Shown here: positions 37,012 to 50,418 of the stretch, one piece after another
Layout of the letters: each line of letters opens with the position of its first letter
Numbering within the stretch: position 1 is the stretch's first letter
Assembly: GCA_964445095.1 (NCBI GenBank)
Contig: CAYUJR010000005.1
Location: forward strand, 1 to 50,422
Direction of reading: 5' to 3'
Source: an uncultured Gammaproteobacteria bacterium
Lineage (GTDB): Bacteria; Patescibacteriota; Microgenomatia; Levybacterales; JACOYD01
Length of the DNA: 50,422 nt
Made by a program: the position numbers and the translations under genes
Notes under the pieces: generated by a model
What the model was told of the DNA's origin: nothing
Databases searched by the model: none
What the model saw: the letters and a program-made list of their open reading frames with translations, nothing else

Positions 37012-37012
37012 A

Positions 37013-38050
37013 TTAAAATTGCTCCAATATTCTTAAATCCGGATTGGTCAAAAGTCGCAGGTCATCCATTTGATAACGTAGGGTTACTAATCGGGAAAGA
37101 CCGATGGCAAAGGCGAATCCGTTGAATTCCTTTGGATTATAACCAACAGCTCGCAAGACATTAGGGTGAATCATGCCGGCCGGCATAATTTCACTCCAGC
37201 CGCTTTTTTTACAAAACGAACATCCCTTTCCATGACAAACAGTGCATTCTATATATGTATCAACACCTGGTTCAACAAATGGAAAATTGGTGGTGGCGAA
37301 CTTAATTTTAATTTTTTCCCCCATTAATTTTTTTAGTACATAGGTAATAGTACCAAAAAGATCTGTTAATCGAACATTCTTGTCAACTAAAAATCCCTCC
37401 ACTTGCCAAAATTCAAAACCATGCGAAGCATCTACCTGTTCATAGCGAAAATTTTTCCCCGGTGCAATCACTCTAACCGGAGGTTTGGTTTTTTCCATCA
37501 CTCTACCTTGCATAGCCGATGTTTGGGTTCGCAAAACAATCTCTCCCGGAGTTACTTTTGTTCCGTGAGTATCTAAATACAGCGTCATTTGTGTATCACG
37601 CGAGGGATGATTCTTTAACATATTTAATACCTCAAAATTGTAGTGGTCAGTTTCAATCTCCGGACCATCGGCAGCTTGATATCCGAGTTGTCTAAACACA
37701 TCTACAACTTCATAAAGAACTTGGGTCATGGGGTGGAGGTGGCCGATTTTGGGCGGGATACCCGGAGCGGTAGTATCAATCTGTTGTTTGCGCGTTTTTG
37801 AGAATTGAGAGTTGAGAATTGAGAGTTGAGAATTGAGAGTTTCTTCGATGGTGTTTTTGATCTCATTTGCCAATCTGCCTATTTCCGGACGTTTTTCCTG
37901 AGGAAGCTTAGTAATCTCCTTTAGGGCTTTGGTCAATTTGCCGCTTTTTCCCAAAAATGACAGTTTTAAATATTCCAGCTCTTTCGCGTCTTTAGCATCA
38001 AGAATTAACGGGATAACTTCATTTTTAATTGATATTAATGTTTCTTCCAT
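37013..38050 (-). CDS. pheS: Phenylalanine--tRNA ligase alpha subunit
   Basis: Motifs GHLHP, LRTQTS, FPFVEPG and GFAFAIG. Confidence 0.95.
   Translation of the reverse strand: MEETLISIKNEVIPLILDAKDAKELEYLKLSFLGKSGKLTKALKEITKLPQEKRPEIGRLANEIKNTIEETLNSQLSILNSQFSKTRKQQIDTTAPGIPPKIGHLHPMTQVLYEVVDVFRQLGYQAADGPEIETDHYNFEVLNMLKNHPSRDTQMTLYLDTHGTKVTPGEIVLRTQTSAMQGRVMEKTKPPVRVIAPGKNFRYEQVDASHGFEFWQVEGFLVDKNVRLTDLFGTITYVLKKLMGEKIKIKFATTNFPFVEPGVDTYIECTVCHGKGCSFCKKSGWSEIMPAGMIHPNVLRAVGYNPKEFNGFAFAIGLSRLVTLRYQMDDLRLLTNPDLRILEQF
37798..37841. repeat. Heptamer array (TTGAGAR) x6 in pheS
   Basis: Alternating ttgagaa/ttgagag, encoding TLNSQLSILNSQFS. Confidence 0.9.
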
Positions 38051-38052
38051 AG

Positions 38053-38313
38053 TTACTTTTGTAATTTACGGGCATACTTAAAAATAGCCACCCATAAAGA
38101 TTTAACAAAATTTTGCTCAAGATGGTATTTGCGTGATAGCGTTTGAAGGACTGCTATTTTTTTTTGTTCTCTACCCGAATCTATTATTTTTAGCCCGTGT
38201 TCTTTTTTAAAATTACCGATTTCCGTTACTATAATTTGGCGCTGGGCAAGTAATTCCAATAACTTTTTATCAATATCGTCTACTTGCTGTCTAAGTTTTT
38301 CCAGGAATTCCAT
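38053..38313 (-). CDS. Chorismate mutase (AroQ-class, monofunctional)
   Basis: LRQQVDDID...LAQR...IGNFK...RE pattern. Confidence 0.88.
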   Translation of the reverse strand: MEFLEKLRQQVDDIDKKLLELLAQRQIIVTEIGNFKKEHGLKIIDSGREQKKIAVLQTLSRKYHLEQNFVKSLWVAIFKYARKLQK

Positions 38314-38327
38314 ATTTTAAAATTGTA

Positions 38328-39962
38328 TCATGTTTTTCCCAAAACTCGAATTATTGGACAATAAACTTTTAGTTCTCCCAAGACTTTAATAAGAGCATTG
38401 TCTTTAAAAACTTTTTCTACTTCTACAAAAAAATGATAATCCCACGGTTTGACTCGGCTGGGGCGTGATTCCAGTTTGCTAAGATTAATGTTATAACTCG
38501 CAAAGACATTGAGGATATCTCTTAAAATTCCCACCCGATCGGGAACTGTCAGGAAAAGCAGTGTCTTATTATTATTTAGCCCTTTAATATTAAAAGGCTC
38601 TTTACTAATAACATAAAATTTGGTTTTATTTGCCGGAAAATCTTCAATATTCTTGGCTAAGACATTGAGACGATATTTTTGGGCAGCCAACAAAGAAGCA
38701 ATATATCCACAACCTTTTTTGTCCAGTTTTATTTCTGAAGTTGTACTTTGAGTAGATATAACGGCGGATTTTGGTAAATTTGTTTTTAGCCACTGCCGAC
38801 ATTGAGCAATTGCCTGTGGATGCGATTTAACGATCTGAATATCTTTTAAACTTTTTTCTTTGGAGACTAGATAGTGATGCACAGATAACTGACATGAACC
38901 AACTACATAAAGATTAAATTGGGCAAGATAATCTAATGTTTCAGCAACTGTACCGCCGATCGAATTTTCCGCTGGCACTACTGCCAGTTCTGCGTTGGCG
39001 GTCGCGACGCTATTAAACGCATCATAAACTGTGGGATAGGCAATGAGGCGGTTTTTGGGAAAAATATTTAAGGCCGTTTCATGAGAATAAGTCCCTTCCG
39101 GTCCCAGATAAGCAATTTTTACCTTTGGAGAAATTCCCTTGACGGACATTTTAACTAAAAAGTTTATTGGTAGTTCTTTTTTGGCAAAGTTAGAAAATTT
39201 TGGGAAAGTTTCTTGTTCGTTAACAAACATCTTGATAAAAGAATTCTTATCTTTTCCGGCAACTGTTTGGAGAAGCTCTTGGGCATTGTTTGCAAAGTTT
39301 TTTAGAACCGGTAGGTAGAATGAATTGTACAGTTGAATATCCGCTAAAAGCGAAAGGTCCTGCTCAAGTACTCTGCTCATCGCTAGCGATTGAAGAGAAA
39401 AAATGGGAGTACGGATTTTGGTCGGCAATTTACGATTAGCAATTAAACTTTTTGAAAGTAGTAGATTGATGGCATGAGTTAATGCTTGAATATAGGCGAC
39501 TGTTTTGTCATGCGTTTTGGGATCTGTTTCGACTACCTCAATTCCCGATTTTTGAAAAAGTTTTTTTAAGAAGTCAACATAGCGATTATCCTTTTGACGG
39601 CAAAAAACAATAGTTTGTCCGGCTAGCTCTCCCGGTGTCGGTCCAAAAAGCGGATGCATGCCCAGCGTCCCGCTTTTAGCTGCTTCCATTGCCCGTAACG
39701 GCTTGACTTTAAGCGATGTGATGTCAGTTAATAAAGAGTCGCGTTTAACCAAGGGGGCGATTTGACTAATAACTTGACTTGCCACTGCAATAGGTACACA
39801 GACAATCACGATGTCGGCCCGTTTGGCACAATTTCCTATTGATAGCCGAGTTTTTCTACCGGCAACAAGAACTATTAATCCTTGGTTTTTAAAAAAATTG
39901 GCGAGCCACTGCCCCATTTTGCCAGTTCCGCCGATAAGACCAATGATAGGCTTCTTTTTCAT
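38328..39962 (-). CDS. Fused prephenate dehydrogenase / prephenate dehydratase-ACT
   Basis: N-terminal TyrA motifs GGTGKMG, DITSLK, HPLFGP and HD. C-terminal PheA motifs AYLGPEGTYS, ENS, SHPQA, TKF and LESRP. Confidence 0.9.
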   Translation of the reverse strand: MKKKPIIGLIGGTGKMGQWLANFFKNQGLIVLVAGRKTRLSIGNCAKRADIVIVCVPIAVASQVISQIAPLVKRDSLLTDITSLKVKPLRAMEAAKSGTLGMHPLFGPTPGELAGQTIVFCRQKDNRYVDFLKKLFQKSGIEVVETDPKTHDKTVAYIQALTHAINLLLSKSLIANRKLPTKIRTPIFSLQSLAMSRVLEQDLSLLADIQLYNSFYLPVLKNFANNAQELLQTVAGKDKNSFIKMFVNEQETFPKFSNFAKKELPINFLVKMSVKGISPKVKIAYLGPEGTYSHETALNIFPKNRLIAYPTVYDAFNSVATANAELAVVPAENSIGGTVAETLDYLAQFNLYVVGSCQLSVHHYLVSKEKSLKDIQIVKSHPQAIAQCRQWLKTNLPKSAVISTQSTTSEIKLDKKGCGYIASLLAAQKYRLNVLAKNIEDFPANKTKFYVISKEPFNIKGLNNNKTLLFLTVPDRVGILRDILNVFASYNINLSKLESRPSRVKPWDYHFFVEVEKVFKDNALIKVLGELKVYCPIIRVLGKT

Positions 39963-39978
39963 AGGTGAATTAGGTTAC

Positions 39979-41103
39979 TTAGACTGTAAAAGGTAGAGAT
40001 TTTTGATAACTGTCAAAATTTCGTTTGGTTTCTCTAATATTATCGCCGCCAAACTTTTCCAAGATGGCGCGAGCTAACACGAAAGCCAGCATGGCTTCCG
40101 ATATTACTCCGGCACGGGCCACCACGCACACATCAGAACGCTGTACAGTAGCTTTTGTTTGTTGGCCGCTTGTAATATCAATTGTTGGCAAGGGTTCGTA
40201 TAACGTTGATAGCGGTTTATGAAAAACTCGCGTAATCACATCTTCTCCATTGGTCATCCCGCCCTCAATACCACCCATATTATTTGTTTCACGCTTAATT
40301 TTCTTCATTTTTACAAAAATAGCATCTTGAGACTCTTGTCCGGTCTTACCGGCAATTTCAATCCCATTTCCTATCTCTACCGCTTTAACCGAAGGAATAC
40401 TCATCAAGGCTTGAGCAATCTGGCCGTCTAGCCGCCTGTCGTAGTGAACATAACTGCCAAGGCCAATAGGAATATGATGGGCGATTACCTCAACTACTCC
40501 GCCAAGAGTATTTTTATTTAATCTGGCTTTAGTGATCTCTTGTTTCATCTGTTCTCGGGCTGTTTTATCTAAGCAATGCACGTCAGGATCAGTAGTGTGG
40601 ATATTTTTTACATCCGCAAAAGAATATTTTACCGGTTGGGTTTTTACTTTACCAATTTGGATAGTATGACTGGCGATTTCTATGTCAAAGATCTCTAGCA
40701 GTTTTTTACAAATCGTTCCCACTGCCACTCGCATGACTGTTTCTCGAGCCGAGGCTCTTTCTAAAACATTACGGACATCACTAAAACCATATTTTAGCAC
40801 GCCGGCTAAATCAGCGTGTCCGGGACGAGGTTTGGTAATCCGCTCTTCCCATTTGGCGCTGTCTTCGTTTTTAACTAATAAGGTAATGGGACTGCCAATG
40901 GTTTTGTTAAAACGCAGGCCAGACAAAATCTCTACCTGGTCGGTTTCAATTTTACCTCGCCCTCCCCTGCCAAAATCAAAGGCTCTTTTTTGCAGTTCCT
41001 GATTAATTTCTGCCGCCGAAATTTTAAGATCCGCGGGCATTCCCTCTAGAATTACCACCTCGGCCGGTCCATGAGATTCGCCGGCTGTTAAAAAACGTAA
41101 CAT
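39979..41103 (-). CDS. aroC: Chorismate synthase
   Basis: Motifs TAGESHG, PRPGHAD, RASARET and GGIEGG. Confidence 0.95.
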   Translation of the reverse strand: MLRFLTAGESHGPAEVVILEGMPADLKISAAEINQELQKRAFDFGRGGRGKIETDQVEILSGLRFNKTIGSPITLLVKNEDSAKWEERITKPRPGHADLAGVLKYGFSDVRNVLERASARETVMRVAVGTICKKLLEIFDIEIASHTIQIGKVKTQPVKYSFADVKNIHTTDPDVHCLDKTAREQMKQEITKARLNKNTLGGVVEVIAHHIPIGLGSYVHYDRRLDGQIAQALMSIPSVKAVEIGNGIEIAGKTGQESQDAIFVKMKKIKRETNNMGGIEGGMTNGEDVITRVFHKPLSTLYEPLPTIDITSGQQTKATVQRSDVCVVARAGVISEAMLAFVLARAILEKFGGDNIRETKRNFDSYQKSLPFTV

Positions 41104-41105
41104 TT

Positions 41106-41627
41106 TTATCTCTCCTTCCTAGGTTGCTTTAAGACTAGGTCTATTACTTCAGCCACCTCTTTGGTAGTTAATTTATTAGTGTCTATAACCTCATCTGCCG
41201 CCTCAATATAAAGTTTACGGCGCTGGGCTAAAACTCTTCTCATATCTTCTCTTCTTGAATTGGTGCCGGTCAAAGAAGGTCTGTTTTCGTCCTCACCGAT
41301 TCTTTTGAGCAGTCTGTCCAGGCTGGCTACCAGTAAAAAAATCAGCCCGTTTTTTTTAAGCATCTTTACATTCTCTTGTCGGATAACAACTCCTCCACCG
41401 GTTGAGACAACTCGATTGTCAAGCTTAGCTACCTTTTTACAAACTCCGGATTCTAGATCGCGGAAATACTCCCAGCCATATTTTTGTACCATCCGCGGTA
41501 CAGTCATTCCAGCTTTTTTGATAATCAAATTATCCATTTCCAGAAACTTTTTTTTAAGGCGGCGCGCTAAAATTCTTCCCACAGTTGATTTACCGGCTCC
41601 GCGCATACCAATAAGTACTATGTTCAT
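41106..41627 (-). CDS. aroK: Shikimate kinase
   Basis: Motifs GMRGAGKST, FRDLE, STGGG and RPSL. Start ATG 41627 overlaps the aroA stop. Confidence 0.93.
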   Translation of the reverse strand: MNIVLIGMRGAGKSTVGRILARRLKKKFLEMDNLIIKKAGMTVPRMVQKYGWEYFRDLESGVCKKVAKLDNRVVSTGGGVVIRQENVKMLKKNGLIFLLVASLDRLLKRIGEDENRPSLTGTNSRREDMRRVLAQRRKLYIEAADEVIDTNKLTTKEVAEVIDLVLKQPRKER

Positions 41628-42910
41628 CTTTTCACCACCTCCATTTTTACCCCCAGTCGGGCTAAATCCTGCCAAAAACCAGGGTAGGATTTGCTGATAA
41701 CTTCGGCATTTTTAATCATAATCCCTCTTTTGGCTCCCAGAGCGGCAATAGCCATACTCATGGCCATACGATGATCCTCGTGCGTATTGATAACTCCGCC
41801 CTTAGGGGGTCTACCGGCAATAGTTAAGGAATTTTTGTTATGAGATACCTCAACTCCGATTTTTTTTAACTCGCGGGCAGTATCGGTGATGCGGTCCGTT
41901 TCCTTATAAGTAAGATGACCAATATTTTTGATATGAGTTTTCCCCACAGCGTAGCTCGCCACTGCCGACAATGTCTGCACTGTATCGGGGCAATTTTCCA
42001 TGTCAACAGTAATTCCTCGTAGAGGGAAGTTCCCCTTGACAGTAACTTGATGGTCGGTATCTTCTATTTGGCAACCCATTTGGGTAAGAATGTTGAGAAA
42101 AACTTTGTCTGCCTGGGGCAGTTTTAAGTTCAAATTGCCTACACTAACCTGACCGCCAGTCACCGCTGCTGCAGCAAATAAATAAGAAGCAGAGGAAAAA
42201 TCACCCTCGATAGCCATGGTGGTAGCCTGGTATGCTTGACCAGGCCGAACGATAAAAACTCGATAATTATCATTTTGTACCTTGACACCGAATTTATTCA
42301 TGACCATAATGGTGGTGTCAACATATGGCTTGGAGGGAAATCTACCTTCAATTTTCAGTCGTAATCCCTTTTTGGCAAAAGGGGCAACCAGCAGTAGAGC
42401 CGAAACAAATTGTGAGCTGGCATTTGGTTTAATAGTAATCTCTCCACCTAAGATTTTACCTCCAGTAATTTTTAGCGGAGCATGACCATTTTTTGCCAGA
42501 GACTTAGTTTTAATACTCAAAGCCTTTAGGCTTTGCAAGAGTTCTTTCATCGGTCGCTCGTGCATCCGTTTACTGCCGGAAATAACAGTAGTGCCGGTAG
42601 CTAAAGCAGCAATGGCCGTAATAAATCTCATGGTGGTGCCGGAATTATTAACTTTAATAGTTTTTTTAGGGACAACGAGTTGTCCACCACTGCCCTTGAT
42701 TGTCAGGGTGGCGCCTTGCCGCTTAATTTTTACACCAAAAGCTCGGCAGGCATTGATAGTTTGCATAGTGTCATTGCTAACTAAGGCGTTTTTAACTACA
42801 GACGTTCCTTTGGCCAGTGAGGCAATGACGGCCGCTCTATGAGTCATACTCTTGGAGGGCGGCGCCGTGACTTTCCCCTTGACTTTTGATGGGAAAATTT
42901 TTATATTCAT
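41624..42910 (-). CDS. aroA: EPSP synthase
   Basis: Motifs PPSKS, NSGTTMRF, SSQFVSALL, KETDRI and DHRMAM. Confidence 0.95.
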   Translation of the reverse strand: MNIKIFPSKVKGKVTAPPSKSMTHRAAVIASLAKGTSVVKNALVSNDTMQTINACRAFGVKIKRQGATLTIKGSGGQLVVPKKTIKVNNSGTTMRFITAIAALATGTTVISGSKRMHERPMKELLQSLKALSIKTKSLAKNGHAPLKITGGKILGGEITIKPNASSQFVSALLLVAPFAKKGLRLKIEGRFPSKPYVDTTIMVMNKFGVKVQNDNYRVFIVRPGQAYQATTMAIEGDFSSASYLFAAAAVTGGQVSVGNLNLKLPQADKVFLNILTQMGCQIEDTDHQVTVKGNFPLRGITVDMENCPDTVQTLSAVASYAVGKTHIKNIGHLTYKETDRITDTARELKKIGVEVSHNKNSLTIAGRPPKGGVINTHEDHRMAMSMAIAALGAKRGIMIKNAEVISKSYPGFWQDLARLGVKMEVVKR

Positions 42911-43344
42911 GATTTTCTAATGTGTTTTATTAATTTTTTAAGACCAACAAGATAACTTTGTTCCTTGAGTCCCATGATTCGATCGACGACAATGCCGGTC
43001 AGAACGTCCTTTTTGCGGAAAGCTTCACGCTTAGTGATGTCTGATAGATGCGTTTCTACGACCGGCACTTTAGCATCCTCCAGGCCGTCTCGCAAAGAAT
43101 AGCCATAGTGGGTTAGGGCCCCGGGATTAATCATAATTCCGTCAACTTTACCCCGATATTTTTGAATAGCATCAACTAGTGCTCCTTCGTGATTTGACTG
43201 AAAAAAGACCAGCTTAACTCCTAATTCTTGGGCTAGATTTACCAAGAGTTTTTTGATGTCAATTAGGGTCAGTACTCCATAATGCTTAACACTACGGCGA
43301 CCCAGCATATTTAAATTCGGCCCATTTAAAACTAAAATTTTCAT
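42907..43344 (-). CDS. aroQ: Type II 3-dehydroquinate dehydratase
   Basis: Motifs LNGPNLNMLG, QSNHEG, INPGALTH and ETHLS. Confidence 0.94.
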   Translation of the reverse strand: MKILVLNGPNLNMLGRRSVKHYGVLTLIDIKKLLVNLAQELGVKLVFFQSNHEGALVDAIQKYRGKVDGIMINPGALTHYGYSLRDGLEDAKVPVVETHLSDITKREAFRKKDVLTGIVVDRIMGLKEQSYLVGLKKLIKHIRKS

Positions 43345-44369
43345 ACTTTACTGGCTTTGTCAAAAGCGTCTGACATAATTTTTACGACATCACTACTCGG
43401 TTCATCAACAGTAAACATAAGAGAAAGAGCCAGAAAGGCCTGCCACACCAGCATACCCTTGCCATTAAGAGTTTTAAAACCAGCCTCTCGTGCTTGTTGA
43501 AGCATTGGCGTTTCTACCGGATTATAGATTAGGTCGGCAAAAACAACATCTTTCCTCTTTCCTTTTAAGACACGGAGAGCATTTGCTGAAAGTTGATGAT
43601 TTTCTTTTAGAGAAATGCTAGTTGGTGCAAGAGACGAGTAAGGTTCTTCCGGCTTTTCTGCCTGGCCTTTAGCCGAGGCATTTAACACTAAATCAAAAGT
43701 CCCCGACCCCACGAGTTGCGGAATTTTTTGTTCTTCAATTGTCCAAAGCTTATTTGCTGAATAGAATCTTTCTAAATGAGCTACCAGTCTTGCTGAATTT
43801 TCAGCAGTTCTATTAGCAATCGTGACTCTTTCCACACCTGCATCCAGCAAGGCGGGGACTACGCCTCTGGCTCCGCCGCCTGCTCCAACTAGTAAAACCG
43901 ACAGCCCTTGAAAATTAGGAATGATCGTTTTTAAGTTTTTTATCTCTCCTTCTCCATCGGTGTTATAGCCCACCAGCATTTCTTCTCTGGCCACCACTGT
44001 ATTAACAGCTCCGGCCTTACGTGCCGACTCGTCAATGCTGCCCCCGAGCCTTGGTATTTGTTCTAAAACGAATCTCTTCCAGGGCATACCCACATTAAAA
44101 CCAATACAGTTGGCGTCTTGACGAATAATCTTCATCATTTTTTTGACTGCGCTTTCTGTGGGAATATCTAAAGCTTGATAATAAGCGTGAATTCTCAAAG
44201 CCTCAAATGCCGCATTCCACATATCAGGAGACTTACTATAAGGAGAAATAACCTCTCCAAATAAAAATATACCCATGACATCACCTGACAATTTTTCAAC
44301 CCCTTTTCTATCAGTGTCTAACTTATTAGTAATCAGTGACGCAATTTCTTGTAATTTTTCTACTTTCAT
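43341..44369 (-). CDS. aroE: Shikimate dehydrogenase family protein
   Basis: Motifs SKSP, GAVNTV, NTDG, GAGGGAR, IANRT, DLIYNP and GMLVWQA. Confidence 0.88.
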   Translation of the reverse strand: MKVEKLQEIASLITNKLDTDRKGVEKLSGDVMGIFLFGEVISPYSKSPDMWNAAFEALRIHAYYQALDIPTESAVKKMMKIIRQDANCIGFNVGMPWKRFVLEQIPRLGGSIDESARKAGAVNTVVAREEMLVGYNTDGEGEIKNLKTIIPNFQGLSVLLVGAGGGARGVVPALLDAGVERVTIANRTAENSARLVAHLERFYSANKLWTIEEQKIPQLVGSGTFDLVLNASAKGQAEKPEEPYSSLAPTSISLKENHQLSANALRVLKGKRKDVVFADLIYNPVETPMLQQAREAGFKTLNGKGMLVWQAFLALSLMFTVDEPSSDVVKIMSDAFDKASKV

Positions 44370-44376
44370 AGGCAAT

Positions 44377-44426
44377 AAAAAACCTCCCCTTCTTGGGAGG
44401 TTAAGTATAGCAAGAGCTAACCTCCC
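44377..44426 (-). terminator. Attenuator (terminator plus antiterminator) of the aro operon
   Basis: GGGAGGTTAG ... TAACCTCCC-aagaag-GGGAGG-TTTTTT. Confidence 0.85.
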
Positions 44427-44473
44427 TACGGCGTAAGGTAAAAGAAACCGAAGGTTTTGGTTAGTTTCTGCAT
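44426..44473 (-). CDS. Phe/Tyr-rich leader peptide MQKLTKTFGFFYLTP
   Basis: 15-codon ORF between promoter TTGACA(44513-44508)-17-TATATT(44490-44485) and the terminator preceding aroE. Confidence 0.85.
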   Translation of the reverse strand: MQKLTKTFGFFYLTP

Positions 44474-44490
44474 AAGTTATTTATAATATA

Positions 44491-44841
44491 TCAGATAGTT
44501 TTTATCTTGTCAACAATGACCTTAAAGGCGGTGGGATCGGTTACTACCAAATCGGCCAGAATTTTTCTGTCTAATTCGATGTGAGCCTTCTTCAGTCTAT
44601 TGATAAAAAGACTATAAGAAAGTTCTTCTTTTTTAACAGCCTCCCCAATTCTGGTGATCCACAGTCGGCGGAAATCTCGTTTTCGCAGTTTTCTGCCGTG
44701 ATAAGCGTAAGCTCCGGCGTGCAAAGCGGCTTGACGGGCTACTCGAACAAGCTTACTTTTTGTCCCCCGATAACCCTTCGTTAATTTTAATAACTTTTTG
44801 TGTCTTCGGCGTGATGTTATTCCTCTTTTAACTCTAGCCAT
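44491..44841 (-). CDS. rplT: 50S ribosomal protein L20
   Basis: Motifs [19 protein letters not shown] and LDRKILADL. Confidence 0.97.
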
Positions 44842-45031
44842 ATCCTAATAACTTTTTAATATTTCTGGCTTGTTTTCCAATTAATTGAGTCGGCTCTTTA
44901 TATCTTCTCAATTGTTTCTTTGTCTTTTTTGCTTTTAAATGGCGGGAGTATTGGTGACCACGTAAAATTTTTCCCTTTTTGGTGATTTTAAATCGCTTGA
45001 GTATCCCCTTTTTTGTTTTCATCTTTCGCAT
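44834..45031 (-). CDS. rpmI: 50S ribosomal protein L35
   Basis: KMKTKKG-KRFKIT; lies between infC and rplT. Confidence 0.93.
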
Positions 45032-45566
45032 AAGCTTTTTTCCTTTCTGGAGAGAGCAGGGTAATTAGTAATTTTCCCTCAAAACGCGGCTCTCTATCAA
45101 CTTTCGAGATATCCGTAAGTCCTCCTATGAAAGTTTGCAAAACTCTTTGACCAAATTCCGGATGGGTGATTTGGCGGCCGGAAAACTTAACAACCAGTCT
45201 TATTTTATTTCCTTGTTGTAAAAATTTTTGAGCATTGGATAACTTGGTTTTTAAATCATGTTTGTGTGTAAATGGTCCTAACCTTATTTCTTTAGTTTCG
45301 GAAGAATGAGTTTTTTTTCGTTCCTCTCGGCGTCTTTTTTCTTCCTGATAAAGAAACTTTTTAAAATCTATTATTTTAACAACAGGAGGAACAGCGTTAG
45401 ATGCAATTTCAACCAAATCAAGCTGTGCCTCTTGCGCTTTCTTTAGTGCTTCATCTTTAGCGACTACTCCAATCTGTTTCCCTGTCTCATCAATCAACCG
45501 CACTTCTCGCGCTTGAATTTGTTGATTTAACCGATAAAACTTTTTTTGACTTGCCACTCGTTTAAT
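44988..45566 (-). CDS. infC: Translation initiation factor IF-3 (probable ATT start)
   Basis: Motifs NQQIQAREVRLID, DLVEIA and KEIRL. An in-frame ATT at 45566 follows GAGG plus 6 nt. Confidence 0.93.
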   Translation of the reverse strand: MKRVASQKKFYRLNQQIQAREVRLIDETGKQIGVVAKDEALKKAQEAQLDLVEIASNAVPPVVKIIDFKKFLYQEEKRRREERKKTHSSETKEIRLGPFTHKHDLKTKLSNAQKFLQQGNKIRLVVKFSGRQITHPEFGQRVLQTFIGGLTDISKVDREPRFEGKLLITLLSPERKKAYAKDENKKGDTQAI

Positions 45567-47307
45567 TTTTTTCCTCGATTTGGGTTTTTAAATTTTCTAT
45601 AAATTGTGACAAACTTTTTTGACCCAAATCTTTTCCCTCCCTTGTTCGAAGAGAGATAGCATCTCCGGCTTTCTCCTTATCCCCCATTATAACCATATAG
45701 GGTACCTTTTGTAAAGTGGCGTCGCGGATTTTGGCCTGCATAGTTTGAGAGCGGTCATCAAGTTCTACCTTAAATCCATTACTTCTTAATTTACTAGCTA
45801 CCAAGTTGGCCTGCTTAACATGCCGCTCGGCAATGGGAATAATCATTATTTGAACCGGAGAAAGCCACAGCGGAAAAGCTCCGGCATAATGTTCAATTAA
45901 AATACCAAAAAAGCGGTGGACTGAGCCAAAAATAGCCCGATGGATCATCACCGGCCGTTGTTCTTTGCCATTGCTATCAATGTAGGTAATCTTAAAGCGC
46001 TCCGGCATGGCAAAATCCAGCTGGATAGTGCCGCATTGCCACTGTCGTCCCAGCGAATCGGTTAGATGAAAATCAATTTTGGGTCCATAGAAAGCTCCGT
46101 CTCCCGGATTTATTTGATAATCAAACTTAAAATCCTCTAGTACTTTTTGAAGAATTTTTTCTGATTTTTCCCACATTTGGGCCGTGCCGATAGATTTTTC
46201 CGGTCTGGTCGACAGCTCGACTTTCATTTTTTTAAAGTGGAAAGGCTCGTAAATTGCCAGAGCCAGTTCTATCACTTTTTTAATCTCTTCTTCAATCTGG
46301 TCTTCCTTGCAAAAAATATGAGCATCGTCTTGCCTAAAGGCCCGCTCTCGCAGCAGCCCATTTAAAGTGCCCGATGGTTCAAATCTATGCACCAATCCCA
46401 ACTCTCTCCATCTAATCGGCAGTTCCCGATAGGAGTGAGGCCGGTTTTTATAAATAATAATCATCCCCGGACAATTCATGGGTTTTAAAGCCATGTCTTT
46501 ATCGTCGGCTGAAGTAAAGTACATTTTATCTTTATAATTATCCCAGTGTCCTGATATCTTCCATACGTCGTTAGTTAAAACAACTGGTCCGGATACCTCT
46601 TCGTAGCCCGCTTGATCATGCATTTTGTTCCAAAAGTCAATTAATGGTTGGCGCATTCTCATACCGTTGGGATGCCAAAAAATAAAGCCCGGTCCTTCCT
46701 CGTGAAAACTAAATAGGTCAAGTTCGGCGCCGATTTTTTTATGGTCTCTTTTTTTGGCCTCCTCCTGCTGCCAGAGATATTGGTCGAGTTCCTCTTGGGT
46801 AGGAAAACAAGTACCATAAATTCGAGTTAACATTTTATTTTTCTCATCTCCCCGCCAATAGGCTCCGGCAACAGATAACAGTTTAAAAGCCCCAATCTCT
46901 TTGGCTAGATTTTGGGCATGTCCACCTTTACACAGATCCAGGAATGATCCCTGCTTAGTTTCCGTAATTTTTTCCCCTTGAGTGGATAACGCATCGATTA
47001 GCTCTAATTTATATGGATTCCATGAGAAATCTTTTTTGGCTTGTTTCACTGAAACCTGCTTTATCTGAAAATCATCCCAGGTTTTCAAGATTTGACGCAT
47101 TTTATTTTCAATTTTTGGAAAATCTACATTCGAGATTGTAATAGCTCCTAAATCGAAATCTTGATAAAAACCATTTTCTATTGAAGGGCCAATAGCATTT
47201 TTGGCATCAGGGAAAAGTTCTAACACGGCAGCCGCCAAAAGATGGGCGCAGGAATGGCGAATATTTTGTAATTTTTGGCCAAACGGCTTATTATTGTTAT
47301 TCTTCAT
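45562..47307 (-). CDS. thrS: Threonine--tRNA ligase
   Basis: Motifs RHSCAHL, DLCKGGH, RDHKKIG, KPMNCP, FYGPKID and WQCGTIQLDF. Confidence 0.97.
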   Translation of the reverse strand: MKNNNNKPFGQKLQNIRHSCAHLLAAAVLELFPDAKNAIGPSIENGFYQDFDLGAITISNVDFPKIENKMRQILKTWDDFQIKQVSVKQAKKDFSWNPYKLELIDALSTQGEKITETKQGSFLDLCKGGHAQNLAKEIGAFKLLSVAGAYWRGDEKNKMLTRIYGTCFPTQEELDQYLWQQEEAKKRDHKKIGAELDLFSFHEEGPGFIFWHPNGMRMRQPLIDFWNKMHDQAGYEEVSGPVVLTNDVWKISGHWDNYKDKMYFTSADDKDMALKPMNCPGMIIIYKNRPHSYRELPIRWRELGLVHRFEPSGTLNGLLRERAFRQDDAHIFCKEDQIEEEIKKVIELALAIYEPFHFKKMKVELSTRPEKSIGTAQMWEKSEKILQKVLEDFKFDYQINPGDGAFYGPKIDFHLTDSLGRQWQCGTIQLDFAMPERFKITYIDSNGKEQRPVMIHRAIFGSVHRFFGILIEHYAGAFPLWLSPVQIMIIPIAERHVKQANLVASKLRSNGFKVELDDRSQTMQAKIRDATLQKVPYMVIMGDKEKAGDAISLRTREGKDLGQKSLSQFIENLKTQIEEKN

Positions 47308-47313
47308 AAAAAT

Positions 47314-47370
47314 AAAAAAACCTCCCGCCTGGGAGGAGTTTTGCTATAACGGCGCAAACAACAACCTCCC
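47314..47370 (-). terminator. Attenuator (terminator plus antiterminator) of thrS
   Basis: GGGAGGTT ... AACTCCTCCC-aggc-GGGAGG-TTTTTTT. Confidence 0.85.
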
Positions 47371-47418
47371 TCAAGAGAGCTTGGTTGTCGTCGTAGAAGC
47401 TATAGCGCTTTGTTTCAT
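47371..47418 (-). CDS. Thr-rich leader peptide MKQSAIASTTTTKLS
   Basis: ACG ACG ACA ACC run; promoter TTGACA(47459-47454)-17-TATAGT(47436-47431). Confidence 0.88.
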   Translation of the reverse strand: MKQSAIASTTTTKLS

Positions 47419-47447
47419 AAGATAAAAGTTACTATACCAAAACAACC

Positions 47448-48749
47448 TCAAGTTGTCAATAGATAATTTTTGAAGTCGGAATATAGATTAGATAACGCGA
47501 TTGTTTTTTTCTTTTTTTGTATAATCTCTTTGAGATTTTTGGGCAGAGCCACTTTTTGTTTTAGGGCTCTTTCTATTGTTTCCGGGAATTTGGCCGGATG
47601 GGCTGTGGCCAAAAAAATATTACTTGATGGTTCTTGGTTTTGCTGAATATACGCTTTGAGTCCCAAGTAAGCTACGGCACTATGCGGATCGAGAATATAA
47701 TGGTACCTTTTGTCAACTTCCCTAATGGCTTGAACAGTTTCTTCGTCGGTAAAACTTTTACTAAAAATATCTTTTTGCATTAATTTAAGATTATTTTGAT
47801 AAAGCTCGCGGATTCTGGCTAAATTATTGGGATTACCTACATCCATGGCATTAGAAAGAGTTTGTTTGGCAGGTTTCGGTTTAAAAGCTCCGGTTTGAAC
47901 AAAATGGGTAAAAACGTCATTAATATTGGTGGCAGCTACCAGTCGAGCCTTAGGTAGACCCATTTTTTTAGCAAGAACCCCGGCTGTAAAATTGCCCAGA
48001 TTACCGCAGGGAATAGAAAAAACCACCGGCCTTGCTTTGTTTGGCAGTTGAGCCCAGGCGTAAAAATAATAAAAAACTTGCGGCAGGAGACGAGCAATGT
48101 TAATAGAATTAGCAGAAGTCAGGGTTAATCTTCTTTTTAATGTTTTATCTAAAAATGCTTCTTTGATCAGTTTTTGACAGTCATCAAATGTTCCTTCTAT
48201 CTCGAGAGTAATAATATTCCCTCCCATGGTAGTAAGTTGAAGTTCCTGCGTTGGACTAACCTTTCCCTTGGGATAAAGTATAATCACTTTAACTTGGGGA
48301 ACATTATAAAATCCCGCTGCCACCGCGCTGCCGGTGTCGCCCGAGGTAGCCACCATGACAGTGGTAGTTTTTTTATTGCTATTGGCTAAAGCGGAAGTGA
48401 GTCTGGCCATAAAACGGGCCCCAAAATCTTTAAACGACAGCGTGGGGCCATGAAAAAGTTCTAAAACCCAAAGGTTATTATCTAATTTTTTAAGATTGAC
48501 TGGGAAGTTCATGCTTTCATTGACAATTTGTCGTAAGTTTTTAGTTGCGATATCGCCTGCAAAAAGCATTTTTGCCAGCTCTAAGGCCACCTCGGTAAAA
48601 GAGAGAAAGCGAAATTTTTCTATCATTTTGGCTGAAAGACGGGGAATCACTCGTGGCAGATAAAGTCCTCCGTCCGGGGCCAGACCGGTAAGAGTAGCTT
48701 GAGCCAGAGAGGCAGATGGGCTTTCTCGGCCAGTACTGTAATAGTCCAT
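47448..48749 (-). CDS. thrC: Threonine synthase
   Basis: Motifs GLAPDGGLY, ELFHGPTLSFKD, ATSGDTG, NSINIAR and TAHPAKF. Confidence 0.95.
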   Translation of the reverse strand: MDYYSTGRESPSASLAQATLTGLAPDGGLYLPRVIPRLSAKMIEKFRFLSFTEVALELAKMLFAGDIATKNLRQIVNESMNFPVNLKKLDNNLWVLELFHGPTLSFKDFGARFMARLTSALANSNKKTTTVMVATSGDTGSAVAAGFYNVPQVKVIILYPKGKVSPTQELQLTTMGGNIITLEIEGTFDDCQKLIKEAFLDKTLKRRLTLTSANSINIARLLPQVFYYFYAWAQLPNKARPVVFSIPCGNLGNFTAGVLAKKMGLPKARLVAATNINDVFTHFVQTGAFKPKPAKQTLSNAMDVGNPNNLARIRELYQNNLKLMQKDIFSKSFTDEETVQAIREVDKRYHYILDPHSAVAYLGLKAYIQQNQEPSSNIFLATAHPAKFPETIERALKQKVALPKNLKEIIQKKKKTIALSNLYSDFKNYLLTT

Positions 48750-48813
48750 AATTAAATCTATAAATTTAGCCTCGATTATACCGAGAAATTATAGATAAAA
48801 ATATATAATAAAG

Positions 48814-48874
48814 TGACCGCTGGTGGACTTGAACCACCGACCTTCACAATGTCAATGTGACGCTCTAGCCAACT
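48814..48874 (-). pseudogene. tRNA-Val(GAC) 3' fragment lacking the first ~13 nt
   Basis: AGTTGGCTA GAGC G TCACA TT-GAC-AT TGTGA AGGTC GGTGG TTCAAGT CCACC AGCGGTC A. Confidence 0.75.
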
Positions 48875-48880
48875 CAGGCG

Positions 48881-49055
48881 TGGGCATTGTAGGATTTTGG
48901 ACCTACGGCCTGTCGCACCTGCCCGCCGCGGTGTGCGCCTGCATGGATTTGAACCATGGACCTCTTCGATGTCAACGAAGCGCTCTACCCCTGAGCTACA
49001 AGCGCATTTTGACAGGCGGGCATCAAGCGACTACTCTACCCTAAGCTAAGCGCCC
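48881..49055 (-). other. Split tRNA-like gene whose anticodon loop encloses the intact tRNA-Val
   Basis: 5' half GGGCGCT TA GCTT AGGGTA GAGT A GTCGC (49055-49027). 3' half GCGAC AGGCC GTAGG TCCAAAAT CCTAC AATGCCC A (48916-48881). Confidence 0.65.
48934..49005 (-). tRNA. tRNA-Val(GAC)
   Basis: Full cloverleaf GCGCTTG TA GCTC AGGGGTA GAGC G CTTCG TT-GAC-AT CGAAG AGGTC CATGG TTCAAAT CCATG CAGGCGC A; CCA not encoded. Confidence 0.93.
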
Positions 49056-49309
49056 AATAAAATTCTTTTGCTAACAACTATTCTATCAATTATGTCCCTT
49101 CTCTTTAACCTTTTTAGTTTATACTCAATACTTCTTGCTTTGCTCAAGCTTTCGTATCGCTGACTAAAAACAAGCTTGAAAGGTCTTGTTAATTGCGTAT
49201 ACTTTAATCTTCCAAAATTATGCTCAACTAATCTTCTTTCTAAATTATTAGTTGATCCGATGTAATACCGATCATTTACTAAAGATCTTAGAATATATAG
49301 TATTCCCAT
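49046..49309 (-). CDS. GIY-YIG nuclease family protein
   Basis: LYILRS...YYIGSTNNLERRLVEHN...RPFKLV...IEYKLKRLK. Confidence 0.88.
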   Translation of the reverse strand: MGILYILRSLVNDRYYIGSTNNLERRLVEHNFGRLKYTQLTRPFKLVFSQRYESLSKARSIEYKLKRLKRRDIIDRIVVSKRILLGA

Positions 49310-49367
49310 TGAACCTATGACCCGTCCGACGTCATGTCGGACTGCTCTACCACTAAACTAACCGTCC
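49308..49367 (-). pseudogene. tRNA-like 5' fragment that breaks off in the T-loop at the GIY-YIG start codon
   Basis: GGACGGT TA GTTT AGTGGTA GAGC A GTCCGAC ATGAC GTCGGAC GGGTC ATAGG TTCA|ATG. Confidence 0.65.
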
Positions 49368-49428
49368 AGACCTCGCCCATTTTACCAACTTTAGTTAATA
49401 AATGCTACTAGGGATTAGAAAGTTATGC

Positions 49429-49746
49429 TTATTTGTCCGTAGGTTCGACCTGTTCCCAGACGCCTCCTGCGCGTATTGTTAGGTCATTAAACCAATCACC
49501 AACCTCATTTAACAACATTGCATCTTGATGTGTAACAGTTGGCTTTTGTTCAGGATGGCCATTGTTGCCTTCAGACAAAAGGTGTCTTGCCAGCTCATGA
49601 GTACCACTGACGTGTGGTGGTAAATCTCTACCCAGCGCACGCATTGCCAACATAAGACAACTGACGCCAACGGCAAGATGATGACGTGCTTCCCTCAAAC
49701 CTTCCTGCTCTTCTCCATGATTATTTCCTCTAGCTTGTTCTACCAT
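49429..49746 (-). CDS. Hypothetical protein (105 aa)
   Basis: ORF with strong SD AAGGAGGTG; no recognised domain. Confidence 0.7.
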   Translation of the reverse strand: MVEQARGNNHGEEQEGLREARHHLAVGVSCLMLAMRALGRDLPPHVSGTHELARHLLSEGNNGHPEQKPTVTHQDAMLLNEVGDWFNDLTIRAGGVWEQVEPTDK

Positions 49747-49766
49747 ATTTACACCTCCTTTCCATT

Positions 49767-49835
49767 AAAAAACCTCCCGTTGGGGAGGTTTCATTTTGCG
49801 GAGCATTTTAAAAAACTACCGCAATAGACCTCCCC
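49767..49835 (-). terminator. Attenuator upstream of the 105-aa orphan
   Basis: GGGGGAGGT ... AAACCTCCCC-aac-GGGAGG-TTTTTT. Confidence 0.78.
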
Positions 49836-49884
49836 CTTGGAAGGCAATAATAATTCCAATAATTTGATTGCTTTGTAATGACAT
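49816..49884 (-). CDS. Ile-rich leader peptide MSLQSNQIIGIIIAFQGGGLLR
   Basis: Leaderless ORF 7 nt after TTGACA(49920-49915)-17-TATTAT(49897-49892); five ATT codons. Confidence 0.75.
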   Translation of the reverse strand: MSLQSNQIIGIIIAFQGGGLLR

Positions 49885-49933
49885 TATTTTGATAATAACA
49901 TACTGCTAAATATTTGTCAAAAACAAAACAATT

Positions 49934-50236
49934 TTAGGCATTCATAACACCCACTATACTATTACTAGGTTGAGCTTGAGGTCCAGTTTTTTCTGCTGGC
50001 TTAGACAAACTAGCATCAACCTGACTTGTTCCACTTTCTGGCCTAACAACTCTTTGCAGATCGTAGCTTGTTGCATCAAAGACGACTACACACATTCCTC
50101 TACCAGATATATCTCCATGATCCAATCCATTTACTTTCGTAACGTCTGCTTCTACTCGAACACTTGCGCCTCCGGCGGGAAATTCAGTTGTTCCTCCTGT
50201 TATTACGGGAACATTTGGATTTATTTCTACGCTCAT
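49934..50236 (-). CDS. Hypothetical protein (100 aa)
   Basis: SD AAAGGGGGTG precedes ATG 50236; no recognised domain. Confidence 0.65.
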   Translation of the reverse strand: MSVEINPNVPVITGGTTEFPAGGASVRVEADVTKVNGLDHGDISGRGMCVVVFDATSYDLQRVVRPESGTSQVDASLSKPAEKTGPQAQPSNSIVGVMNA

Positions 50237-50261
50237 TCTATTCACCCCCTTTCAAAGCATT

Positions 50262-50332
50262 AAAAAACCTCCCGTTGGGGAGGTCTTAAAAATTACTTTA
50301 TTTTAGATTTTAATTATCTAAAAAGACCTCCC
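50262..50332 (-). terminator. Attenuator upstream of the 100-aa orphan
   Basis: GGGAGGTCTT ... AAGACCTCCCC-aac-GGGAGG-TTTTTT. Confidence 0.78.
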
Positions 50333-50418
50333 GTAAAAGCTCCCAAAAGGAGAGCCAATAATAGAAGGCTAAGTAAAATTTCAACTTTCTTAAAATCTAA
50401 AACAATGCTTTTTGTCAT
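50314..50418 (-). CDS. Leu-rich leader peptide MTKSIVLDFKKVEILLSLLLLALLLGAFTGGLFR
   Basis: 34-codon ORF at the window edge, so the start and promoter cannot be verified; 9 Leu in 11 codons. Confidence 0.65.
   Translation of the reverse strand: MTKSIVLDFKKVEILLSLLLLALLLGAFTGGLFR

Follow-up and report, generated by a model that had tools for sequence, protein, structure and literature searches.

Predicted leader-peptide attenuators on one RNA module with interchangeable sensor codons in a Microgenomates-like genome

Four elements of one layout

The window analysed here, 50,422 nucleotides of contig CAYUJR010000005.1 (GenBank assembly GCA_964445095.1), carries four short elements that are very probably ribosome-mediated transcription attenuators of the leader-peptide type, sharing one modular RNA chassis. 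Attenuation, as the original prediction proposed, is supported by the common layout of the elements, the fixed spacing of their parts, their alternative folds and the mostly matching leader codons and downstream genes. The shared sequence architecture, its conservation in related genomes, the foldability of the RNA and the codon-to-function concordance are all observed directly. Reading the window itself places the four elements at 44377–50418, all on the minus strand, as claimed.

Each element is made up of a promoter, a short open reading frame (ORF) with a run of one amino-acid class, a GGGAGG hexamer (segment 2), a spacer of 20–43 nt, and the hairpin CCTCCC-loop-GGGAGG (segments 3 and 4, with a loop of 4–6 nt), which is followed by T6/7 and a gene. 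The runs are LLSLLLLALLL, IIGIII, TTTT and FGFFY, and the leader ORFs have no Shine–Dalgarno (SD) motif. On recounting, the last control codon is separated from GGGAGG by 11 nt (FGFFY), 12 nt (TTTT), 11 nt (IIGIII) and 11 nt (Leu), the same values as given originally. A promoter is visible upstream of three of the four elements, also as described, and the Leu leader begins 4 nt from the window end. The three promoters are near-consensus (TTGACA, 17 nt, and TATTAT, TATAGT or TATATT), and the leader ORF begins 7–12 nt after the -10 box. The pattern CCTCCC-N3-7-GGGAGGTTTTT has four matches in the window vs 0.00 expected from 100 shuffles.

The Leu leader ORF (34 codons plus stop, MTKSIVLDFKKVEILLSLLLLALLLGAFTGGLFR) occupies 50314–50418 on the minus strand, which carries all features of the four elements, and its promoter would lie past the window end. 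Segment 2, the 5' arm of the antiterminator, is the GGGAGG at 50327–50332, located 11 nt past the last Leu codon and extended to GGGAGGTCTT; its fold with the segment 3 partner AAGACCTCCC has an energy of -19.2 kcal/mol. The terminator CCTCCC-CAAC-GGGAGG-T6 (50262–50283) folds at -13.6 kcal/mol, and the element scores 50.4 bits with covariance model R1. The Ile promoter (TTGACA-17-TATTAT, 49892–49920) has its -35 box at 49920–49915 and its -10 box at 49897–49892, ending 7 nt before the ATG of the leader ORF (MSLQSNQIIGIIIAFQGGGLLR, 49816–49884). In the Ile attenuator (49767–49834), segment 2 (49834–49829) is joined to the terminator CCTCCC-CAAC-GGGAGG-T6 (49788–49767) by a spacer that contains an inner hairpin. 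The 2:3 and 3:4 folds of this attenuator have energies of -20.7 and -13.4 kcal/mol, and R1 gives it 45.5 bits.

The Thr promoter (TTGACA-17-TATAGT, 47431–47459; -35 box 47459–47454, -10 box 47436–47431) overlaps the end of thrC and ends 12 nt before the leader ATG, the corrected position of which is 47418. The leader ORF (MKQSAIASTTTTKLS, 47371–47418) terminates in a TGA that abuts segment 2 (47370–47365), and the attenuator (47314–47370, 45.8 bits with R1) ends with the terminator CCTCCC-AGGC-GGGAGG-T7 at 47336–47314. In the 1:2 pairing of this element the Thr codons pair with GGTTGTTGTT just past segment 2. The Phe/Tyr promoter (TTGACA-17-TATATT, 44485–44513; -35 box 44513–44508, -10 box 44490–44485) overlaps the rplT stop and ends 11 nt before the leader ATG, here corrected to 44473. 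The TAG stop of the leader ORF (MQKLTKTFGFFYLTP, 44426–44473) overlaps segment 2 (GGGAGG 44426–44421, within GGGAGGTTA at 44426–44418). The attenuator (44377–44426) closes with (A)CCTCCC-AAGAAG-GGGAGG-T6 at 44400–44377, has 2:3 and 3:4 energies of -14.7 and -13.5 kcal/mol and scores 47.5 bits with R1.

A fifth copy in the genome

The pattern CCTCC-N3-9-GGAGG-T4+ has five matches in the genome (818,293 bases, 40% GC), the four window copies and one at C22:6369-6348, and 5/5 of these CCTCC-loop-GGAGG-U hairpins have the attenuator layout. The fifth copy has an Arg leader with an RRR run (MKIEITVLADRRRTFS), its stop abuts GGGGAGG, and the element precedes a GNAT protein and an ArgE/DapE-family deacylase. 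Covariance model R1, trained without this copy, recovers it at 46.9 bits, within the range of the window copies (45–50 bits), while the next match scores 20.8 bits. We infer that the regulon in this genome has five members, with Leu, Ile, Thr, Phe/Tyr and Arg leaders. The 20.8-bit match (C9:30031-30113, minus strand) has the stems GGGAGA / TCTCCC / GGGAGA-T6, its own promoter and a leader (MGPCCNNARFLSLFIVIR) whose stop abuts segment 2, and is followed by small orphan ORFs. It is a possible divergent sixth member.

Anatomy and distribution in related genomes

The anatomy of the elements was examined in a set of 144, comprising loci L001–L110 and this genome. Flanks were taken for the order-level terminator matches listed down to G090:C2:33645, with later listed matches and 188 others left out; terminators closer than 150 nt to the start of a locus were excluded, and the window Leu element was added back by hand. 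GGGAGG is present 8–80 nt upstream of 95/143 terminators and of 0/142 in a control window farther upstream. An automatic rule assigns 93/144 elements to some run class: aromatic (36), Leu (25), Ile (11), Thr (7), mixed Ile/Leu/Val (6), Ser (5), and Met, Val and Arg (1 each). The other copies carry run-bearing short ORFs at a fixed distance, as the original prediction would have it, the gap between run and GGGAGG being 11–12 nt in 44 of the 74 scorable elements. The leader stop codon lies at -4 to -2 in 31 of these and at +6 in 20 (51/74 together). Given the generally known sizes of the ribosome footprint, this spacing suits both a stalled ribosome that frees segment 2 and a terminating ribosome that masks it.

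A sigma70-like site whose -10 box ends 6–12 nt (mode 7) before the ATG is found at 67 of the 88 classified leaders, compared to 21 of 418 control positions, and none of the 67 promoter-bearing leaders has an SD-like site. The promoter spacing indicates that the mRNAs probably start leaderless or nearly so. The far end of the module is equally regular. The U-run is exactly 7 nt long in 113/144 elements, and in 116/144 a start codon follows it within 0–2 nt, which is the case for 75/333 other T6+ runs. In 79 of these 116 cases the start codon opens a mini-ORF of at most 15 codons. The 3' arm of the terminator probably doubles as a ribosome-binding site; in the window and in relatives, start codons after the U-run lie 7 nt from the terminator GGGAGG.

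The original prediction took the module to be reused within the lineage, and scanning related genomes for the full pattern GGGAGG-N10-40-CCTCCC-N3-7-GGGAGG-TTTT bears this out: it occurs in 20 of 41 related genomes and in 61 of 401 genomes drawn evenly from the class. A sample of the phylum has it in 4 of 401 genomes, with just one among the 374 genomes of other classes. The terminator part alone is found in 168 of 245 genomes of the order, at 1–8 copies each. The reversed pattern, used as a control, has no match in the 41, 245, 401 and 401 genomes searched.

The label 'CPR-like' (candidate phyla radiation), which had been attached to the genome from its letters, fits, because the genome has 818 kb and the nearest named relatives of its threonyl-tRNA synthetase (ThrRS) are Microgenomates (Gottesman-, Ames- and Roizmanbacteria). 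Several of the closest ThrRS loci (L131, L133, L134, L139 and others) are titled, for example, 'uncultured Gammaproteobacteria' or 'Pseudomonadales'. With the window they share 50–59% ThrRS identity, equal to or above that of Microgenomates-labelled loci, and the titles of these records appear doubtful. A CCTCC...GGAGG-T terminator lies upstream of thrS in 1/80 named ThrRS loci (L161). Attenuators of thrS thus do not generally use this exact chassis. Short ORFs with Thr runs precede thrS together with the stems CCCACG/CGTGGG or GGAGGG/CCCTCC in L136, L141 and L175, which are Gottesmanbacteria and Roizmanbacteria records, and T-rich short ORFs do so in L184, L207 and L208, the last two being Deinococcales records. 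Control of thrS by Thr leaders may be wider than the CCTCC/GGAGG chassis.

Alternative folds

The alternative 2:3 and 3:4 structures, and probably also 1:2, fold as attenuation requires, in line with the original proposal. The median folding energies of 1:2, 2:3 and 3:4 are -8.0, -16.2 and -13.8 kcal/mol, respectively. GGGAGG pairs with CCUCCC in the minimum free energy fold of segments 2 and 3 in 95/95 elements, and the 2:3 helix is more stable than 3:4 in 66 of the 95. The terminators of the five copies in this genome have energies of -11.0 to -13.9 kcal/mol and end in U6-7. In the Thr and Arg elements it is the control codons that supply the 5' half of the 1:2 helix; such a helix is plausible in the other copies.

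Leader codons and downstream genes

The genes behind the elements were assigned with Pfam and NCBIfam on 88 query entries, a few proteins being entered twice, chosen mainly by length or cluster. The proposal that the codon run matches the function of the downstream gene stands for most genes of known function and fails at four loci (L013, L076, L082 and L102), which are described below. Thr leaders precede thrS in the window and in L036 and, after a small ORF, in L001 and L020. The Phe/Tyr leader of the window precedes the genes from aroE to pheST. Aromatic leaders in relatives are found before shikimate kinase (aroK, L010), EPSP synthase (aroA, in L052, L055 and L067), prephenate dehydratase (pheA, L093) and DAHP synthase (L107). 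In relatives, 17 aromatic-run leaders lie at most three ORFs ahead of a pheS-cluster gene, with one or two small ORFs between; this is a BLAST cluster of 21 members, one of which was scanned and is PheS.

Ile leaders precede threonine dehydratase (ilvA) in L069, RidA and threonine dehydratase in L113, where the leader contains IQIIGIII and is like the Ile leader of the window, and an HMGL/LeuA-dimer synthase (cimA) in L019. In L119 an Ile leader stands before what was judged by eye to be a synthase. A Ser-rich leader precedes a serB-serA fusion (L018), Pro-rich leaders of the type LPxP...P precede an AA_kinase protein resembling ProB (L037 and L066, and L070 by BLAST cluster only), and a Trp leader precedes a Glycos_transf_3 protein (L092). 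The third element of L116 has a Met-run leader (MMM, MLNCLSEKMMMLEMSFRREERL) before a SAM_HAT_C protein, similar to S-adenosylmethionine (SAM) hydrolase. The SAM hydroxide adenosyltransferase family would release methionine from SAM. If this activity holds for the L116 protein, a Met-run leader in front of it would make neat starvation logic.

Cargo proteins and the Leu leader peptide

Most first genes behind the elements encode small, fast-evolving proteins (60–170 aa) without a Pfam match where scanned; they fall into many small BLAST clusters, and 70 first ORFs are singletons. Among the families are one of the Leu class with 158 aa and one of the Ile class with 118–122 aa. In cargo pairs that are at least 68% identical, the ratio of nonsynonymous to synonymous substitution rates (dN/dS) is 0.11–0.26, which points to purifying selection. 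The cargo ORFs therefore appear to be real genes, and the notion that they are non-coding spacers is ruled out by these close pairs.

The cargo is poor in the amino acid of its own leader. Leu makes up 4.8% of Leu-class cargo vs 7.5% in other classes (p=4.5e-4), Ile makes up 3.7% of Ile-class cargo vs 6.6% (p=0.002), and Phe, Trp and Tyr together account for 3.9% of aromatic-class cargo vs 7.6% (p=5e-8). With one value per BLAST cluster, the ratio of cognate to average content is 0.585, and 0 of 5000 label permutations equal it. That all cargo ORFs are depleted in this way holds in the order-level set and partly in a second set from other orders. The idea of 'cognate bias', in the accessible text of PMC4209129, concerns biosynthetic enzymes, and the depletion seen here carries it over to proteins without assigned function.

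The Leu leader is itself conserved across orders as a peptide of 32–35 aa with the consensus MSK..a.D.kr.EiLLsLL...LGGLFR before the stop (L111, L113, L115, L116 and L119). Sensing may not be the only role of this peptide.

Proposed mechanism

Leader translation, ribosome stalling, termination and a response to starvation would follow from these features as predicted steps of the following scheme. Transcription would start from a promoter 6–12 nt before the SD-less ORF, giving a leaderless or nearly leaderless mRNA; a leader SD, if present, would itself pair with the CCUCC segments. Segment 1 of the RNA would be rich in C and U (CUUCC or CCUCC-like) and be followed by segments 2 (GGGAGG), 3 (CCUCCC) and 4 (GGGAGG-U6-7), and the same CCUCC/GGAGG complementarity would serve the 1:2, 2:3 and 3:4 helices. 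When the cognate aminoacyl-tRNA is plentiful, the ribosome would reach the stop, which abuts segment 2 or lies just past it, and mask segment 2, allowing 3:4 to form and transcription to terminate at the U-tract. Without translation, 1:2 would form and lead likewise to termination. When the tRNA is scarce, the ribosome would stall on the run and cover the next 11–12 nt, which hold segment 1; segment 2 would remain free to pair with segment 3, and the polymerase would read through. The freed segment 4 (GGGAGG-U7-RUG) would probably act as ribosome-binding site for the first ORF or mini-ORF downstream and add translational control.

Several observations weigh against this scheme. The leaders have no SD, so that their translation is only a prediction. 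The 1:2 helix has 6.64 bp compared to 5.95 bp with shuffled upstream sequence (96 elements). Covariation outside the fixed hexamers is scant: for the 3' extension of 2:3 it does not exceed that with shuffled partners (813 of 2000 shuffles equal it), and the tests of the 5' extension (12/2000) and of degenerate segment 2 (p=9e-4) are just modestly positive. RNAalifold, run on 21 aromatic-class antiterminators, gives five pairs with no compensatory change in a MAFFT alignment that set CCTCCC out of register. Inner spacer hairpins are seen by eye in aromatic-class elements, and the misregistered run is uninformative on them. By the automatic rule, 34 of the 144 elements have no clear run and 17 have no leader or segment 2; several of the 17 are plain bidirectional terminators.

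The remaining points concern codons and cargo. In L013 and L076 thrS stands behind leaders (..VMMQMKAS and ..LSMQMKSS) that have no Thr run, with a small ORF between attenuator and thrS (TIGR00418 is above its cut-off for L076). In L102 the leader 193 nt upstream of alaS contains no Ala, and in L082 an Ile leader lies two ORFs ahead of a prephenate dehydratase (PDT). Leu leaders precede Methyltransf_11 proteins in four genomes of two orders with no evident link; L059 and L126 match the family, and L072 and L124 belong here by similarity only. The Leu content of the 18 cargo ORFs in the second set is uneven (0.010–0.130, mean about 0.071). The 34-aa Leu leader resembles a small membrane peptide, with a charged head and one membrane helix; being conserved as a peptide and membrane-like, it may therefore owe its Leu richness to a second cause.

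Alternative explanations

The best of the alternatives, in our estimate still an unlikely one, is a mainly translational switch, in which the hairpin would sequester the SD in GGGAGG-U7-RUG, translation of the leader would open or close this site, and the U-run would serve as a spacer. The enrichment of start codons directly after the U-run and the prevalence of U7 described above speak for it. So does the beginning of the aro string, where the TTG at 44375 lies 7 nt past the GGAGG of the Phe/Tyr terminator, and so does thrS, which has no other SD-like site. Against it, a GC-rich hairpin of 6–9 bp directly before U6-8 is a textbook intrinsic terminator, most of the start codons in question open mini-ORFs, and many real genes, including both orphan genes of the window, have their own SD. 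The two modes are compatible, and dual control is counted within the attenuation reading.

It is considerably less probable that a trans-acting factor (a protein that binds RNA, uncharged tRNA as in T-boxes, or the CCUCC tail of 16S rRNA) sets the switch and that the short ORFs are incidental. The segments are perfect mimics of SD and anti-SD, none of the 67 promoter-bearing leaders has an SD of its own, and two sub-threshold T-box-like matches occur elsewhere in the genome; the window, in turn, has no T-box match. The codon runs keep a constant distance and share the frame of a start codon located immediately after a promoter. A single RNA-binding factor would be insufficient, because the identity of the run tracks downstream function over at least eight amino-acid classes on one unchanged chassis. 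Finally, that these are ordinary terminators or repeats which lie by chance near SD-like GGGAGG hexamers and genes of small hydrophobic peptides, with no sensing, hardly deserves credence: some copies in relatives are indeed plain bidirectional terminators at gene ends (e.g. L008, L036, L062 and L108) and the Leu leader does look like a membrane peptide, but the enrichment of upstream GGGAGG, the elements' own promoters, the fixed spacing and the codon-function concordance contradict it, and at 1–8 copies per genome the hairpin is not the lineage's general terminator.

A wider proposal built on attenuation is tentative and, on balance, doubtful. The elements would form a class-wide Microgenomates-like regulon on one SD/anti-SD-mimicking module with leaderless sensor ORFs for at least eight amino-acid classes, and its main cargo would be small, fast-turning-over starvation effectors that can be synthesised without the sensed amino acid. 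If true, this would reveal a hidden amino-acid-specific layer of response, e.g. host scavenging or growth arrest, and the leader codons would provide the first functional label for scores of orphan genes.

Relation to known systems

Among the 4227 models of Rfam 15, only tRNA matches reach gathering level in the window. Phe_leader (RF01859) has full-length sub-threshold matches on all four elements (36.1, 23.6, 22.3 and 20.9 bits, gathering 55), and among the 18 Rfam matches with E up to 10 no other leader family covers them. Attenuation by leader peptides in Patescibacteria, CPR or Microgenomates is the subject of no paper found, in a literature coverage that is incomplete and gives no proof of absence.

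The elements resemble the classical enterobacterial attenuators (trp, thr, leu, ilv, his and pheA) in their four-segment logic, codon runs, stop near segment 2 and GC hairpin with U-tract. The stems of the classical attenuators are unrelated from one operon to the next, and their leaders are preceded by an SD. Here, in contrast, one hexamer set serves Leu, Ile, Thr, Phe/Tyr/Trp, Ser, Pro, Met and Arg leaders in at least 61 sampled genomes of the class, and small orphan proteins, rather than biosynthetic operons, are the most frequent cargo. The elements differ from the textbook cases in the use of one hexamer pair for all three helices and all amino acids, in the SD-less leaders and in the GGGAGG-U7-RUG end.

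Leader-peptide attenuation of an aminoacyl-tRNA synthetase operon is described for E. coli pheMST in the accessible part of PMC9291695. The window Phe/Tyr element is similarly located directly after rplT of thrS-infC-rpmI-rplT, with pheS-pheT downstream; unlike pheMST, it has seven aro/tyr/phe genes between leader and pheS, an SD-less leader and class-wide CCUCC/GGAGG stems. Because it begins at the rplT stop and has pheS-pheT downstream, it sits where E. coli has pheM and is, by place, the positional counterpart of pheM. Presumably, the pheM peptide also resembles FYFTS-type leaders.

Classical attenuators in front of aminoacyl-tRNA synthetase genes, as in the present case, were predicted in actinobacteria by Seliverstov et al. 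(2005, PMC1262725), among them those of trpS and leuS in Streptomyces. According to the accessible text of the same study, actinobacterial trp attenuators have conserved complementary triples gGCC-rGCy-GGCC across genomes. Unlike the hexamers here, these triples appear there as common to orthologous trp leaders, not to leaders for different amino acids in one genome, and that text does not describe a thrS attenuator among the actinobacterial cases. In mycobacteria, leaderless poly-Cys short ORFs act as Cys-responsive attenuators, as far as the accessible portion of bioRxiv 10.1101/834739 goes, and the accessible text of PMC1262725 gives their cys leaders as having no conserved terminator hairpins. 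The sensor ORF on a leaderless mRNA is a common trait, deduced in our case from promoter spacing only; the difference is that the canonical hairpin and U7 are invariant here.

T-box riboswitches (RF00230) likewise sense tRNA charging and control aminoacyl-tRNA synthetase and amino-acid genes by antitermination. Unlike them, the present elements have no specifier loop or T-box sequence, RF00230 has no match in the window, and sensing would proceed via codon runs in a translated ORF. The two best T-box-like matches in the genome, C12:21624-21832 (minus strand) and C7:23958-24136 (plus strand), score 45.7 and 45.1 bits (cut-off 93), and one of them is separated by 92 nt from a downstream 124-aa ORF that looks, by eye, like a tRNA-binding domain protein. 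Leaders that sense tRNA and leaders that sense the ribosome may occur side by side in this genome.

Much of bacterial diversity belongs to the CPR/Patescibacteria, almost all of which are uncultured, and we know of little published work on their gene regulation. If the attenuation reading is true, the elements would constitute a class-wide cis-regulatory RNA system in the CPR, and thrS and pheST of this lineage would come under predicted leader-peptide control. The codon run would name the signal in a form readable by eye and predict the inducing condition for many orphan genes. A minimal alternating CCUCC/GGAGG module re-coded for many amino acids would also bear on the evolution of attenuators and on the design of synthetic sensors.

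Genes behind the window elements

Behind the Thr element lies the thrS-infC-rpmI-rplT operon (44491–47307, minus strand; thrS ATG at 47307), all four genes of which score above cut-off with NCBIfam equivalogs. The Phe/Tyr element was originally said to precede an aro operon. The aro genes are present, and the gene string extends beyond them: by Pfam, it comprises, on the minus strand at 35125–44375, aroE, aroQ, aroA, aroK, aroC, a tyrA/pheA fusion (PDH, PDT and ACT), chorismate mutase (38313–38055), pheS and pheT. The best NCBIfam hits of aroE and of the chorismate mutase gene are below cut-off. Strand and spacing suggest that the string is co-transcribed as one unit.

The gene behind the Leu attenuator (49934–50236, minus strand) encodes a 100-aa orphan with its own SD (GGGGGTG) and a Leu content of 2.9%, compared to 10.8% in the proteome. 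The gene behind the Ile attenuator (49429–49746, minus strand) encodes a 105-aa orphan, also with its own SD, in which Ile makes up 1.0% vs 8.2% in the proteome. The Leu orphan has no Pfam family and one relative, 77% identical, in a word-index homologue search over lengths of 55–184 aa; in the same search the Ile orphan has no relative, and its only Pfam match is a sub-threshold DUF6833. Their predicted structures are too poor for a fold search (pLDDT 37 for the Leu orphan, and 61, with three helices, for the Ile orphan). Two mini-ORFs on the minus strand, encoding ML (50260–50252) and MERRCKYGRTS (49765–49730), extend to or across the SD or start of the real gene. The start codon after the U-run and the overlap of the mini-ORF suggest SD sequestration combined with translational coupling.

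A further feature of the minus strand lies at 48800–49380. A GIY-YIG nuclease ORF (49309–49046, PF01541) begins inside the apparent T-arm of a tRNA-like sequence (about 49360–49300), and is followed by tRNA-Val(GAC) at 49005–48933 and a partial tRNA match at 48872–48821. This region may represent a tRNA gene interrupted by the insertion of a homing endonuclease.

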